The notes under the pieces were generated by a model, which made no database searches, was not told where the DNA came from, and saw only the letters and a program-made list of their open reading frames with translations. Shown in pieces: positions 13,139 to 16,876 of a stretch of DNA of 44,197 nt; the first letter of the stretch is position 1, and each line of letters starts with the position of its first letter. Origin of the DNA: a virus (lineage: Duplodnaviria > Heunggongvirae > Uroviricota > Caudoviricetes). The stretch lies in the IMG/VR virus record IMGVR_UViG_2563366948_000003; one strand, given 5' to 3'. The translations under genes and the position numbers were made by a program.

Positions 13139-13588
13139 ATGACAACTAACCACCCGGCGCACGGTCATGTATCACTCGATCGCCTGCACCAGATACGCGA
13201 AATACTCAGCAACGCAGCAGCACAAAGCGACGGCGGTAATCTCGGCTACGCAATGGCTGATGCTGTGAAGGTGATTGATGGAGTTCTGGAGTCGATGGCC
13301 CGTGAGCAAGTACGCCGTGAGCATGCTACATGGTCACAGGCTACTTTCGGCGATGTCGGTCCAGTTGGTCCGCTGAAGCACCTTTCCAAAGAAGCGCTCG
13401 AGGCGGCAGCTGAACCAAGTGACCTTACCGAATGGGCTGACATGCAATTCCTGTTATGGGATGCGCAACGTCGTGCCGGTATCAGTGATGAGCAGATTAC
13501 CCTGGCGATGGTAGAAAAGTTGGCGGTTAACAAACAGCGCGAATGGCCTGAGCCGAAAGATGGTGAGCCGCGTCTGCACATCAAGTAG
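13139..13588 (+). CDS. DUF550-like phage protein (putative dNTP pyrophosphohydrolase family)
   Basis: 149-aa protein. Segment HATWSQATFGDVGPVGPLKHLSKEALEAAAEPSDLTEWADMQFLLWDAQRRAGISDEQI resembles the DUF550 family. Confidence 0.45.
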   Translation: MTTNHPAHGHVSLDRLHQIREILSNAAAQSDGGNLGYAMADAVKVIDGVLESMAREQVRREHATWSQATFGDVGPVGPLKHLSKEALEAAAEPSDLTEWADMQFLLWDAQRRAGISDEQITLAMVEKLAVNKQREWPEPKDGEPRLHIK

Positions 13589-13641
13589 ACTCTTATGGAT
13601 AATTGAACCCTAATTCATTATGAACATAATAAGGAGTCCTT

Positions 13642-13962
13642 ATGTCTTACATAATGCCTGAAAAAGGCCAAATGAATGAATATGGAATTGAGGCTTTCGG
13701 GATCCCGCTTACCAGTAGGCATGGAGTTGCGATGGAACTGTCTCAAATGCTACGTTTTTCTTACTATGTAGCTTCAGTTGGGCTTGTAAAATGTATTGAA
13801 AGTGTCTTCTATGATTCAGGCTCTTGCTGCTGTAATTTTGAATTTATTCCCGGGTTTAATGAGTATTCGGAGGAGGCAGAAAAAATTAGACAGTGCGCGC
13901 TACGTTCGATTGGGCAATTTGAATGGTTTGGTATGATTGAACACGGCGACATCAACGGCTAA
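13642..13962 (+). CDS. Hypothetical cysteine-rich protein (moron-like)
   Basis: 106-aa ORF with an AGGAG RBS in an AT-rich context and a CCC motif (YDSGSCCCNFEF). Followed by a terminator. Confidence 0.4.
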   Translation: MSYIMPEKGQMNEYGIEAFGIPLTSRHGVAMELSQMLRFSYYVASVGLVKCIESVFYDSGSCCCNFEFIPGFNEYSEEAEKIRQCALRSIGQFEWFGMIEHGDING

Positions 13963-13992
13963 GTGTTTAACTCCAATAGCAAACGAATAAAA

Positions 13993-14015
13993 GCCTCTAA
14001 GTTAGAGGTTTTTTA
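13993..14015 (+). terminator. Rho-independent terminator
   Basis: Stem CCTCTAA/TTAGAGG followed by a T-run (GCCTCTAAGTTAGAGGTTTTTT). Confidence 0.65.
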
Positions 14016-14153
14016 TGTCTGAAAGGTAGCATTACCAAGTCTATGGTTGCCTAGCTCAGTCAGGCTTGTATTTGGTTGCTTAGCAATCAACTCATGCGAC
14101 ATGAGCGGGATCTTTCTAATCATCATTTTCGGTAAATGATTTTGGTTGCTTGG

Positions 14154-14188
14154 TTGACAAAATCGAGAAAATGCGAAAATATATGGTT
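14154..14188 (+). promoter_or_regulatory. Candidate sigma70 promoter with operator-like direct repeats upstream of the 14218 cassette
   Basis: TTGACA at 14154-14159, ~17-nt spacer, then AAATAT. Direct repeat TTGGTTGCTT at ~14073 and ~14143. Confidence 0.3.
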
Positions 14189-14217
14189 TACGAATTCCAA
14201 AAAAAGCGAAACTTGAA

Positions 14218-14868
14218 ATGAGCGACAACCAGTTAGCACCTTGTTGGGAATTTCAGCCTTACCTTGCTGAAAGCAATGTTCGTCAGTTGTTAGCGGAAAT
14301 TGCTAATGTACTCGAGCAATTGTACTACCACAAACACACACTGGACAGTAACTGGTCCGAAGGTGTAAGGGCTTATGATTGGGTCAGAAATCATTTGATT
14401 CAAAGTGAAGGGACACTGCCGGGTCTGGAAATGGTTTCGAAGGGACTGGATTATGTGGTTGCGTTAAATAAAGTGCCGCTGCAGTTCTCCAAAGATTGCA
14501 TTAATAACCCGAAGAAGAAGCATCGCCTTCTTCGAAATAGGGTGGAGCATGAGCAACTTTCATTGTTCGGTGAAACTGAAGCCGAGCAAGATATTACATG
14601 GCGGATCATCGCCGAACCATTTTTATCCGATGAAGAAGATGGCGAGCTGGAATCAACATTGCCTCGCTGGGAAGTGGCTTTAGTTGGGTTTAACGCATAT
14701 GGTGCCCAGATCAGTATGGTTTCACACCAATCTACTGCTTCAGCGCCGCTTATGTCTCTTGATACCAACACTCTTCCGGATGAAGCTGAGATTGGCAAAG
14801 CCTCTCTTCGCCGCCGTAAAAAAGATCAAGATTTGGATGTGAGCAGTAATGGAACATCAAGTGAATGA
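14218..14868 (+). CDS. Hypothetical protein (216 aa), first gene of a two-gene cassette
   Basis: AT-rich ORF with no recognisable motif. Overlaps the downstream HTH-peptidase gene by 20 nt. Acidic C-terminal half. Confidence 0.5.
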   Translation: MSDNQLAPCWEFQPYLAESNVRQLLAEIANVLEQLYYHKHTLDSNWSEGVRAYDWVRNHLIQSEGTLPGLEMVSKGLDYVVALNKVPLQFSKDCINNPKKKHRLLRNRVEHEQLSLFGETEAEQDITWRIIAEPFLSDEEDGELESTLPRWEVALVGFNAYGAQISMVSHQSTASAPLMSLDTNTLPDEAEIGKASLRRRKKDQDLDVSSNGTSSE

Positions 14869-15952
14869 CTTTGCTGAGTATCGTGGGGATAAGCTCAAAT
14901 TAGCCAGAATGGCTGTTGGGCTCTCCTGCGAAGAGTTAGCGGAGAAAATTGGTAAAACAAAACAATTCGTTAGCAAATTGGAAAAAGGGTTTAAACCATC
15001 AGAACAGTTGTTAGAATTAATCTCATCTGCGCTGATGATTAAATCTGATTTCCTATTTACTGAACGAAAATATGCTTTAGAAAGCGATGTTTGCCATTTT
15101 CGGAGTAAAAAATCGAGAACCCAAACATTAACCAATAGTGTTCTGGCAAGGGCGGAGATTCTTAACATTATAATCTCTGCCGTTGAGGGAGAAATCGAGT
15201 TTCCTGATGTTTTCATACCTGAGCACCCCGGTGCTGAATTGCTGACTCCAAATGATATTGAACGTGTAGCGGAAGACTGCAGAAGAGCATGGAACTTAGG
15301 GCTGGGACCTATATCCTCAATGGTCAAACTGGCTGAGAGTTTGGGGGTTATTGTTGCTCATGTGACAGGAGTGGATGACCGCGTAGATGCTTTTACTGTT
15401 CATAACAACAGGCCAGTAATCATCCGAAATAACGTCAAAAAGAGTATATGCAGATTCCGATCAGATTTAGGTCACGAATTGGGGCACTTGGTTATGCACG
15501 AAGGTATAACCACAGGAGATAAAGTGACTGAATCGCAAGCGGATCGTTTTTCAAGCGCGTTGCTAGTTCCTCGATTGTCCTTTATTAAAGAGTTTCCCCG
15601 TATACGAGGAAGACAGTTCGATTGGAACGCCCTAGTTGAGTTTAAGCTTCGGTGGAAGATTAGTCTTAAAATGTGCATTTACCGAGCAACAACTCTAGGC
15701 CTGCTGACGCAGGAGCAGGCAAGAACAGGTTATATGCATTTGAACTCTAAAGGATATACGAAAGTTGAACCAGGAGATGAATTTATTCGCCCGGAAGAAC
15801 CGAGTATGTTAGCTGAGGCGATTGAAATGCTGGATGATGCAACATGGATGAGCATTCTCATGAAAACTGGTTTAAGCCAGGAGTTGGTTAGGGAGTTATT
15901 CTCGGTAAACCGCCCACTGTCAAATCCAAGAAATCTACTTCAACTGGTTTGA
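14849..15952 (+). CDS. Fused XRE-HTH / ImmA-IrrE family (M78) zinc metallopeptidase
   Basis: N-terminal HTH (LSCEELAEKIGKTKQFVSKLEKG). C-terminal domain with the HExxH zinc motif (LGHELGHLVMHE) in ImmA/IrrE (COG2856/DUF955) context. Confidence 0.8.
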   Translation: MEHQVNDFAEYRGDKLKLARMAVGLSCEELAEKIGKTKQFVSKLEKGFKPSEQLLELISSALMIKSDFLFTERKYALESDVCHFRSKKSRTQTLTNSVLARAEILNIIISAVEGEIEFPDVFIPEHPGAELLTPNDIERVAEDCRRAWNLGLGPISSMVKLAESLGVIVAHVTGVDDRVDAFTVHNNRPVIIRNNVKKSICRFRSDLGHELGHLVMHEGITTGDKVTESQADRFSSALLVPRLSFIKEFPRIRGRQFDWNALVEFKLRWKISLKMCIYRATTLGLLTQEQARTGYMHLNSKGYTKVEPGDEFIRPEEPSMLAEAIEMLDDATWMSILMKTGLSQELVRELFSVNRPLSNPRNLLQLV

Positions 15953-15967
15953 CTCAAAGCTTGTAAT

Positions 15968-15991
15968 AAACCCGCTATATGCGGGTTTTTT
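15968..15991 (+). terminator. Rho-independent terminator
   Basis: AAACCCGCTATATGCGGGTTTTTTC: stem CCCGC/GCGGG plus T-run, immediately after the HTH-peptidase stop. Confidence 0.7.
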
Positions 15992-16114
15992 CTTTCTGGT
16001 AGCGCGCTGTGGTAACGCTGTGCCTCCAGCGCTCGCTGAGGCGCTGGTGCGTGCTAATTTGCCGGAGCTTTGTCAGCAGAAACAAATAGCGGCGTAATAA
16101 AACATTGCTAATTC

Positions 16115-16141
16115 AACCCGCTACGGCGGGTTTTCTTTTTT
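16115..16141 (+). terminator. Second, near-identical rho-independent terminator
   Basis: CAACCCGCTACGGCGGGTTTTCTTTTT: same stem as the terminator ~145 bp upstream. Confidence 0.6.
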
Positions 16142-16204
16142 TAATACTGACAGAAAATTAACAATTTGTGCTCTTAAAACGTTGATCATTTCCGTGCATA
16201 GGTA

Positions 16205-16224
16205 TACTGTATAAAAACACAGCA
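16205..16224 (+). promoter_or_regulatory. LexA (SOS) box
   Basis: TACTGTATAAAAACACAGCA matches the CTGT-N8-ACAG LexA consensus (CTGT 16207-16210, ACAG 16219-16222), ~20 bp upstream of the dinI-like start. Confidence 0.75.
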
Positions 16225-16242
16225 CATGCAATGGAGGCTATT

Positions 16243-16476
16243 ATGAAAGTTGAATTAACCATTGATCGCATGAAAGAACTTCCTAAAGGCGCAGTACCAG
16301 CACTGGAGAAAGAACTGCTTAAGCGCCTGAATGATCACTATGACAATTGCAGGCTCACAATCCGCCGTGCCGGGTCCGATGGGTTAAGTGTTTTTGGTGG
16401 TGACAAGGACGATAAAAAGAAAATTGAATCAATCCTCCAGGATACCTGGGAAAGCGCTGACGACTGGTTTTATTAG
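16243..16476 (+). CDS. dinI: DinI-family DNA-damage-inducible protein
   Basis: MKVELTIDRMKELPKGAVPALEKEL...ESILQDTWESADDWFY closely parallels E. coli DinI (MRIEVTIAKTSPLPAGAIDALAGEL...SEILQETWESADDWF, recalled). GGAGG RBS. The track ORF starts 12 nt upstream. Confidence 0.85.
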   Translation: MKVELTIDRMKELPKGAVPALEKELLKRLNDHYDNCRLTIRRAGSDGLSVFGGDKDDKKKIESILQDTWESADDWFY

Positions 16477-16593
16477 AATTGCGCTTAAGGCTGGCGCGCA
16501 TTTTTCAGAATACCGCAATTTGCGTAACCCTCTGATGCTGCTGCCGACAATCTTTAATCGCGTCTGTTAGTCGCTCGAAGGGAGAACATAAAT

Positions 16594-16842
16594 GTGAGTG
16601 ATTCAGCTTTGCAAACGTCAGAAGACAACTGGTATGACATTGTAAGAAGGTCTGACGGCTGCGTGGTGTTTAGCTTTCCTTCATCGGGCAGGCATCTAAT
16701 TTATCGCGTCAATGGCATGGTTTCTATGCGGCCTTTGCTGGATGATGAAGAGGTCTTTACTCCTAATGGTTTTATGCAATTTATCCGCCGTCTCGGCTAC
16801 CGGGTAACACCACCTTCTGATAATATGAAATCAACGGTCTGA
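16594..16842 (+). CDS. Hypothetical protein (82 aa, GTG start)
   Basis: ORF downstream of dinI on the same strand with a GGGAGA RBS. No motif recognised. Confidence 0.4.
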   Translation: MSDSALQTSEDNWYDIVRRSDGCVVFSFPSSGRHLIYRVNGMVSMRPLLDDEEVFTPNGFMQFIRRLGYRVTPPSDNMKSTV

Positions 16843-16876
16843 ACAACCGTAACCTACTGCGCCACGGAGAGAAACC

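Follow-up and report, generated by a model that had tools for sequence, protein, structure and literature searches.

The 44,197-nucleotide (nt) viral record IMGVR_UViG_2563366948_000003 (here called the window, meaning this whole stretch of DNA) is a lambdoid Escherichia coli prophage. Two overlapping genes in it, rmrT (gene 1, the predicted toxin) and rmrA (gene 2, the predicted antitoxin), very probably form a RosmerTA toxin-antitoxin (TA) and anti-phage module, which the prophage would carry as a self-contained accessory cassette, or 'moron' (Table 1). The first protein matched the PADLOC model RmrT PDLC03929 (E 2.4e-26) over amino acids (aa) 7-207 of 216, and the second matched RmrA PDLC03943 (E 1.6e-106) over aa 11-349 of 367, together with 13 further RmrA models. 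The RmrT and RmrA models of PADLOC run in two parallel series, and the window pair shares the same offset between them with the verified pair of E. coli OLC-716 (PDLC03935/PDLC03949) and with a RipAB orthologue (RmrT PDLC03931, RmrA PDLC03945). The OLC-716 sequences were taken from the supplement of 10.1101/2022.05.11.491447 and the RipAB orthologue was retrieved via a primer given in PMC12795458. Over 301 aa, gene 2 also shared 29% identity with the verified OLC-716 RmrA (E 3e-35), and its nearest NCBIfam model was the 'spr1629 family repressor/antitoxin' (E 7e-46, under that model's cutoff). Judged by these matches, the system is one already described (RosmerTA, 2022) and caught by standard defence-system models, and the cassette is a computationally catalogued Rosmer subtype whose toxin family is distinct from the tested ones. 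A first-pass annotation of this DNA, made from the sequence alone, had put the pair forward as a candidate for an undescribed conflict or regulatory system. The paired RosmerTA models (10.1101/2022.05.11.491447) remove the novelty and uphold the TA-like, conflict-system character, and gene 1, then a candidate effector or sensor, becomes the predicted toxin RmrT (PDLC03929).

RosmerTA was named by Millman et al. 2022 (10.1101/2022.05.11.491447). The E. coli OLC-716 system gives protection from phages, and no ΔrmrA mutant of it could be made (10.1101/2022.05.11.491447). Defence by the RosmerTA of Gordonia phage Kita covers Bas54 and Bas59 according to the main text, or Bas54 and Bas60 according to the legend of Fig. 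5E; the Kita toxin depolarises membranes (PMC10440598). A toxic RmrT that is neutralised by RmrA, with an antitoxin that cannot be deleted alone, is common to OLC-716, Kita and RipAB (10.1101/2022.05.11.491447, PMC10440598, PMC12795458). The window cassette shares with OLC-716 two co-directional genes, toxin first, and an antitoxin of about 370 aa that joins an XRE helix-turn-helix (HTH) to an M78 zinc peptidase. Both toxins are about 220-240 aa long, lack a Pfam domain and contain, in mid-protein, a clamp-like peptide ahead of a W-containing β-strand. The toxin families themselves differ (PDLC03929 in the window, PDLC03935 in OLC-716) and are unrelated by sequence and by profile.

The limits of the cassette were defined by comparison with five other loci, namely a second E. 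coli prophage and loci of Xenorhabdus, Serratia, Yersinia and Limnobaculum. Across them the similarity starts exactly at 14151 and stops at the rmrA stop codon, with unrelated flanks (14-38% identity), so that the mobile unit is 14151-15952, comprising a 67-nt promoter/operator, rmrT and rmrA. Directly 3' of the RmrT homologue, and often overlapping it, an HTH-M78 gene (363-381 aa) was present in 10 of 10 informative loci (L002, L003, L004, L005, L008, L009/L010, L011, L012, L013 and L021; two more were too short). The toxin-antitoxin pairing was kept down to about 20% toxin identity. Cassettes were positioned beside hokD before DUF968/RusA/Q, between Q and a holin gene, beside tail-fibre/invertase genes, among chromosomal metabolic genes and beside an integrase. 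In the survey of homologue neighbourhoods that the first-pass annotation had proposed, gene 1 was thus paired with an HTH-M78 gene without exception, both at unrelated sites in prophages and in chromosomes outside prophages. The Rosmer cassette moves from one accessory-gene slot of a prophage to another as one compact piece that holds promoter, operator and both genes. A match to the region was found in 281 of 5426 complete E. coli genomes (about 5%), most at 80-90% identity, and four complete genomes carry it at 100% identity. Two genes now labelled 'hypothetical' and 'helix-turn-helix protein', and carried by about 5% of complete E. coli genomes, can thus be given the name of a defence/TA system.

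The two reading frames overlap by 20 nt (14-35 nt across homologous cassettes), which suggests translational coupling. The G+C content of the cassette is 43.3% against 51.2% for the whole window. Together with a hairpin and T-run on either side, these features agree with the earlier description of two overlapping AT-rich genes between terminators. The upstream hairpin closes the preceding unit; it lies outside the conserved mobile module and is not kept in L002 (E. coli N18-04097). An Rfam scan of 13400-16700 gave nothing above chance and thus argues against an RNA antitoxin or leader.

Table 1 Features of the RosmerTA cassette and of the DNA around it, with positions in the window.
Feature	Coordinates	Strand	Remarks
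DUF550 gene	13139-13588		Two open reading frames upstream of the cassette
Orphan open reading frame	13642-13962		106 aa, no family
Upstream terminator-like hairpin and T-run	13989-14013	+	11 pairs, -11.7 kcal/mol, z -4.2; readable on both strands
Promoter/operator, left edge of mobile module	14151-14217	+	67 nt, conserved
Direct repeat, first copy	14151-14178		28 nt
Candidate -35 element	14154-14159		TTGACA (perfect)
Candidate -10 element	14177-14182		AAATAT, 17 nt from the -35 element
Direct repeat, second copy	14184-14211		28 nt
rmrT, predicted toxin/effector	14218-14868	+	PADLOC subtype PDLC03929; 216 aa, soluble, acidic
QLSLF codons (aa 113-117), clamp-motif match	14554-14568	+	Followed by Gly and an acidic linker
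RmrT tail (aa 187-216)	14776-14868		
rmrA, predicted antitoxin/autoregulator	14849-15952	+	367 aa; XRE HTH, M78 Zn-peptidase, C-terminal helical region
CTGT-N8-ACAG match inside rmrA	15396-15411		CTGTTCATAACAACAG
HELGH codons (aa 209-213)	15473-15487		Zinc site of RmrA
Intrinsic terminator-like hairpin and T-run	15968-15988	+	-12.8 kcal/mol, z -4.0; 16 nt past the rmrA stop
DNA methyltransferase remnant	15999-16132		C-terminal part
Second terminator	16115-16132		
LexA-type box	16207-16222		CTGTATAAAAACACAG
DinI-family gene	16231-16476		Pfam E 9e-26
Orphan open reading frame	16594-16842		82 aa, no family

A candidate promoter with a perfect -35 element lies in the 67 nt ahead of rmrT, together with two copies of a 28-nt direct repeat (79% identity, 33-nt spacing, GGTTGAC...GCGAAA). 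The first copy overlaps the -35 element and the second spans the predicted start site and the leader. In the five aligning Enterobacterales cassettes these 67 nt are 78-93% identical, against 57-82% for the coding DNA and 14-34% for the unrelated flanks. The respective values for upstream DNA, rmrT and rmrA are 87%, 63% and 68% in Serratia, 84%, 62% and 66% in Limnobaculum, and 78%, 57% and 59% in Yersinia. Xenorhabdus has an equivalent repeat pair, shifted and ~30 nt further upstream, and its upstream 67 nt score 60%. The repeat pair is kept in homologous cassettes of six genera and the TTGACA is invariant. As read from the DNA, the conserved TTGACA with its paired 28-nt repeats is the signature of an autoregulated promoter. 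The first-pass annotation had proposed a candidate promoter of the cassette's own with operator-like repeats, and this stands for the 28-nt repeats. The TTTGGTTGCTT repeats (14071, 14141), possibly the ones it meant, were rejected as operators, since homologous cassettes lack them; they also fall outside the mobile unit.

Several observations weigh against the assignment. We found no toxicity, defence or other experimental work on the PDLC03929 subtype in the literature. The RmrT family had no significant similarity to the OLC-716 toxin, to the family of that toxin or to RipA by BLASTP or hhalign; common ancestry of RmrT with the OLC-716 toxin and RipA was therefore dropped, and the shared short motif alone is reported below. 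The candidate -10 element keeps three of the six consensus positions (A2 and T6 among them), a consensus scanner made no call there, and no Shine-Dalgarno sequence precedes rmrT. Finally, the cassette sits in a prophage accessory-gene slot and not in a defence island in the window. This last point would also suit a pure addiction or stabilisation module, that is, a type II-like TA that keeps the prophage or the cassette in the genome without an anti-phage role, as would the behaviour of the cassette as a selfish mobile element that brings its own promoter and turns up at many unrelated sites. We consider such an exclusive role unlikely. Two other Rosmer systems with a homologous RmrA protect against phages, slots of this kind often hold superinfection-exclusion or defence genes, and the turnover of subtypes in one slot between phage Tritos and E. 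coli N18-04097 is as expected of defence cargo. Addiction and defence are, moreover, not mutually exclusive. Tritos (L020, 36334-38090; PDLC03933/34-like with PDLC03947) and E. coli N18-04097 (PDLC03929 with PDLC03943) both carry their pair in the hokD-DUF968/RusA/Q slot, seemingly a hotspot for the exchange of Rosmer systems in Rac-like lambdoid phages.

The predicted toxin RmrT is acidic (34 D/E against 21 K/R) and has no hydrophobic or transmembrane segment. It belongs to phrog_5786, a family of unknown function, and searches of Pfam, NCBIfam and PDB sequences gave nothing meaningful. Gene 1, in which the first-pass annotation recognised no motif, has no Pfam or NCBIfam family. A tblastn search of 50,697 phage records gave no match to RmrT despite the existing PHROG family, which presumably derives from prophages. 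In a profile search of 1.8 billion representative proteins the RmrT family had about 90 representatives, nearly all of about 200 aa, and all 79 of the aligned members matched PDLC03929. The conserved polar residues of the family are D43, R51, E110, Q113, R129 and E133. The RmrT tail keeps a short linear motif, which reads P-x-E-A-E-I...L-R-R-R among close relatives and (G/A)V(D/E)LPxPxV among more distant members. Here RmrA or ClpX could recognise or cleave the toxin. An AlphaFold2 model of RmrT had a predicted local distance difference test score (pLDDT) of 83 and a predicted template modelling score of 0.74, with a low-confidence C-terminal tail.

The residual interest of the cassette, which we rate as moderate, is mechanistic and concerns a toxin subtype with a consensus clamp-binding motif and a conserved operator architecture. 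The segment QLSLF is an exact match to the bacterial β-clamp-binding consensus QL[S/D]LF (more broadly QxxLF, or QLxLx[L/F]), whose critical positions are 1, 4 and 5; the affinity of QLSLF for the E. coli clamp is sub-micromolar (PMC12309361). These critical positions are also the conserved ones of the RmrT motif (Q1, L4, F5), and E110 (90%), Q113 (80%) and L116 (72%) are among the most conserved residues of the family. Of 79 family members, 12 carry the strict motif, where shuffles would give 0.025, and 64 carry penta- or hexapeptide clamp-like forms (QxxLF, QLSLAF, QLSLPL and others), where 15.6 would be expected. Nearly all of these variants fall at relative position 0.50-0.57 and are followed by Gly and acidic residues. 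The RmrT peptide named for the clamp (DnaN) hypothesis is EHEQLSLFGETE.

Comparable segments were seen in other Rosmer toxins. The OLC-716 RmrT family has QLKLDL at the equivalent place, before the W-containing strand, with the variants QLNLDL, QLKLDF and QLDFGF, and NLDLF in Vibrio-type members. An exact QLSLF also occurs in the RmrT of a Zymomonas plasmid, which is of yet another subtype (PDLC03938). EISLF, a weaker form, is present in a toxin from a Lacticaseibacillus phage, and NYELNF in that of Tritos. The RipA orthologue starts MLNQDLFD, with the candidate motif NQDLF; PMC12795458 discusses no motif in RipA. The only Rosmer toxin whose target is known is RipA (Spr1630 of S. pneumoniae): it interacts with DnaN, and substitutions in the hydrophobic DnaN pocket, which receives clamp-binding motifs, suppress its toxicity (PMC12795458). 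Because of the QLSLF motif, and after the example of RipAB, we propose a DnaN-pocket mechanism for the window RmrT. The two systems share the two-gene architecture and the PADLOC RmrT/RmrA class, and RipA targets the DnaN pocket and needs ClpX for its neutralisation. They differ in that RipA is of another sequence family with an N-terminal motif (NQDLF) whereas the RmrT motif is internal, and in that RipAB is chromosomal in a Gram-positive host, with a described role in competence induction and not in phage defence. SocAB, a type VI TA of Caulobacter, offers an analogy: its toxin blocks replication by occupying the β-clamp pocket, ClpXP becomes essential since it clears the toxin, and the antitoxin acts via proteolysis and not by plain sequestration (PMC12795458). 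SocAB has, however, no homology to the cassette, and SocA is a small ClpXP adaptor and not an HTH-metallopeptidase.

Going by the motif, the window RmrT may bind DnaN, a prospect that we regard as real although short of probable. Also short of probable is the wider proposal that Rosmer toxins unrelated in sequence share the poisoning of the DnaN pocket by clamp-like peptides, with the HTH-M78 antitoxin and ClpXP removing the toxin in a type-VI-like manner, so that the cassette would be a prophage-borne replication-arrest defence. Certain facts count against the clamp proposal. Clamp-like motifs are short, and the shuffle controls ignore shared ancestry. QLSLF lies at the end of the predicted helix 108-115 and runs into a loop of lower confidence (pLDDT about 71), and its conservation could be structural, with the hydrophobic positions packing in the core. 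Rosmer toxins are heterogeneous (the Kita toxin acts on the membrane), which makes extrapolation of the RipA target risky. The occurrence of the motif in several Rosmer toxin families nevertheless gives a direct hypothesis that links the RipA-DnaN study to E. coli defence systems. If it is true, the heterogeneous toxin collection would be unified and the sliding clamp would join the recurrent targets of abortive-infection effectors. Release of RmrT would then be expected to induce the SOS response, and possibly the prophage itself, beside a LexA-controlled dinI.

RmrT could instead be a divergent PD-(D/E)xK nuclease that cuts DNA or RNA, with QLSLF as a structural element. A fold search found that RmrT weakly resembles the restriction-endonuclease fold (αβββαβ core), without its catalytic motif, and a Foldseek search against viral structures gave no match at E ≤ 0.001. 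Catalytic residues are not conserved in the family, where D78 is variable and there is no conserved (D/E)xK, such as strands 2 and 3 of that fold would carry, and a nuclease is in our view as improbable as the addiction-only role.

The second protein, RmrA, consists of an XRE HTH (aa 13-70; Pfam HTH_3 at aa 16-62, E 3e-9), an M78 domain (aa ~160-283; Peptidase_M78 at aa 176-280, E 1e-10) and a C-terminal helical region. Its zinc site is intact, with HELGH and a third ligand, E228, in ESQADRF. These features confirm the fused XRE HTH and HExxH ImmA/IrrE-type peptidase noticed from the sequence at first pass. RmrA was more conserved than RmrT in every pair compared, which is the usual pattern of a shared antitoxin scaffold with swapped toxins.

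In the mechanism that we propose for the RosmerTA cassette, the HTH of RmrA would bind both 28-nt repeats, over the -35 element and the leader, and so autorepress the operon, and RmrT would be a cytoplasmic toxin held in check by RmrA. By analogy with two other Rosmer systems, RmrT would be neutralised with the help of ClpX(P), which the host must supply; the toxin is probably processed or handed over by the M78 peptidase. Infection by another phage would upset the balance of RmrA and ClpXP, RmrT would be freed, the infection would be aborted and the lysogen population protected. Two independent studies tie the control of a toxin to ClpX(P). In one, RipA makes clpX essential and the action of RipB depends on ClpX (PMC12795458). 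The other concerns a prophage TA of E. coli E101 that Millman et al. invoke as an earlier instance of the Rosmer arrangement; in its presence clpP becomes essential, and its toxin is suppressed by a T46S change (10.1101/2020.05.25.114553). Residue 46 is T in the OLC-716 RmrT and an invariant W in the window RmrT, which suggests that the E101 toxin belongs to the OLC-716 subtype. Control of a toxin linked to ClpX(P) resembles the type VI logic of SocAB, whose toxin is cleared by proteolysis. Because of this ClpX(P) link and the SocAB-like logic, RmrA would likely have two roles, as an autorepressor through its HTH and as a processing or hand-over factor through its M78 peptidase.

The roles could also be reversed, with a toxic or executing HTH-peptidase and with gene 1 as its neutraliser or sensor. 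PD-λ-2, an E. coli phage defence system in which an Xre-peptidase fusion likewise lies downstream of a toxin-like gene, behaves in this way: its Xre-peptidase, PD-λ-2B, causes toxicity, and PD-λ-2A relieves it (Vassallo et al. 2022, PMC9519451). Gene order in ImmA/Rosmer nodes is variable as well, with the toxin first in 58% (Ernits et al., PMC10440598). PD-λ-2 differs, however, in having three genes (a HigB-like first and a P4-antitoxin-like third) against two here, and in the toxicity of its peptidase fusion; the window proteins had no PD-Lambda-2 match in PADLOC, gene 2 in particular none to PD-Lambda-2_B. In the closer Rosmer relatives ΔrmrA was not obtainable and ripB is essential only with ripA present, and the conservation of RmrA above RmrT in all pairs compared also speaks against reversed roles, which we judge quite improbable.

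A LexA-type box (CTGT-N8-ACAG) stands ahead of the DinI-family gene downstream of the cassette. The first-pass annotation had placed a LexA-regulated operon immediately downstream, and box and dinI are indeed nearby. A link to the cassette did not hold up: two terminators and a methyltransferase remnant part it from the dinI unit, and the module ends at the rmrA stop. The window has three CTGT-N8-ACAG matches against 0.5 expected, and two of 100 shuffles reach three. A second match, inside rmrA, is probably due to chance.

This setting bears on a last explanation, in which the HTH-M78 protein acts as a derepressor that responds to DNA damage, or as an ordinary regulator of the prophage (a fused version of ImmR/ImmA or CapH/CapP). 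It would switch on genes of the prophage or of its neighbourhood, such as the dinI unit, with gene 1 as an accessory. The M78 peptidases ImmA, IrrE and CapP cleave XRE repressors on DNA damage, the capP and capH models match gene 2 weakly (E 2e-14 and 3e-5), and the LexA-type box and dinI lie 255 nt downstream. ImmA/ImmR (ICEBs1), IrrE/DdrO (Deinococcus) and CapP/CapH (CBASS), the analogues named in the first-pass annotation, resemble the cassette in their M78/COG2856 HExxH peptidase with an XRE HTH. In those systems, in contrast, peptidase and repressor are separate and the output is derepression after DNA damage, whereas the window cassette has a fused HTH-peptidase coupled to a toxin gene and a far better Rosmer match, some 90 orders of magnitude better for RmrA than for capP. 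No separate small XRE repressor gene was found in the module, and published Rosmer genetics favour an antitoxin function that depends on ClpX(P) over the lifting of repression by a second protein. With a separate immunity region in the prophage, a module that ends at the rmrA stop, two terminators before dinI and neighbours that differ widely and include non-prophage chromosomal genes, this explanation is very improbable. The varied contexts, the conserved pairing and the conservation of RmrA are thus arguments against both a peptidase acting as the prophage's own repressor and a link to dinI.

The immunity genes of the prophage, a CI-like repressor with Cro/YdaT, are at about 8.9-10.2 kb, and the cassette lies between the replication/ead genes and the nin/Q region. 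Upstream of it are the O/P replication genes, ead/Ea22 and the DUF550 gene; downstream are DinI, DUF1367, NinG and Q. The DUF550 gene encodes a member of the dATP/dGTP pyrophosphohydrolase family (Pfam E 9e-42), a nucleotide-pool enzyme within the early region of the prophage. The AT-rich DNA (about 40-47% G+C) extends over 13600-16850, wider than the cassette alone, and this stretch also contains the two orphan open reading frames; it suggests a patchwork of accessory inserts. The 106-aa frame, which lies between the DUF550 gene and the cassette, was rejected as a third component; it is outside the conserved module and has no family. The methyltransferase remnant (a RefSeq pseudogene) stands between the rmrA terminator and the second terminator, and 16031-16130 share 92% identity with phage mEp237. 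At this slot, most of a methylase gene thus seems to have given way to the Rosmer cassette.

Further observations concern RmrT relatives elsewhere. Ten separate stretches of P0041, a protein of 2412 aa, match positions 138-168 of the RmrT profile (E 1e-11); it is probably a repetitive protein that shares a β-hairpin-like segment. In Salmonella houtenae (AGRM01000003.1; L021, 865-1482) an unannotated 205-aa open reading frame is a PDLC03929 RmrT (E 1.5e-26), upstream of an annotated 'helix-turn-helix protein' and beside an integrase; the deposited record has a 41-aa reading frame there. On a metagenomic contig (L008, 1-4789) a Rosmer pair of the PDLC03929 subtype directly follows a PIN7-domain gene and a gene of 1454 aa without a Pfam family, which may be a defence-island context.

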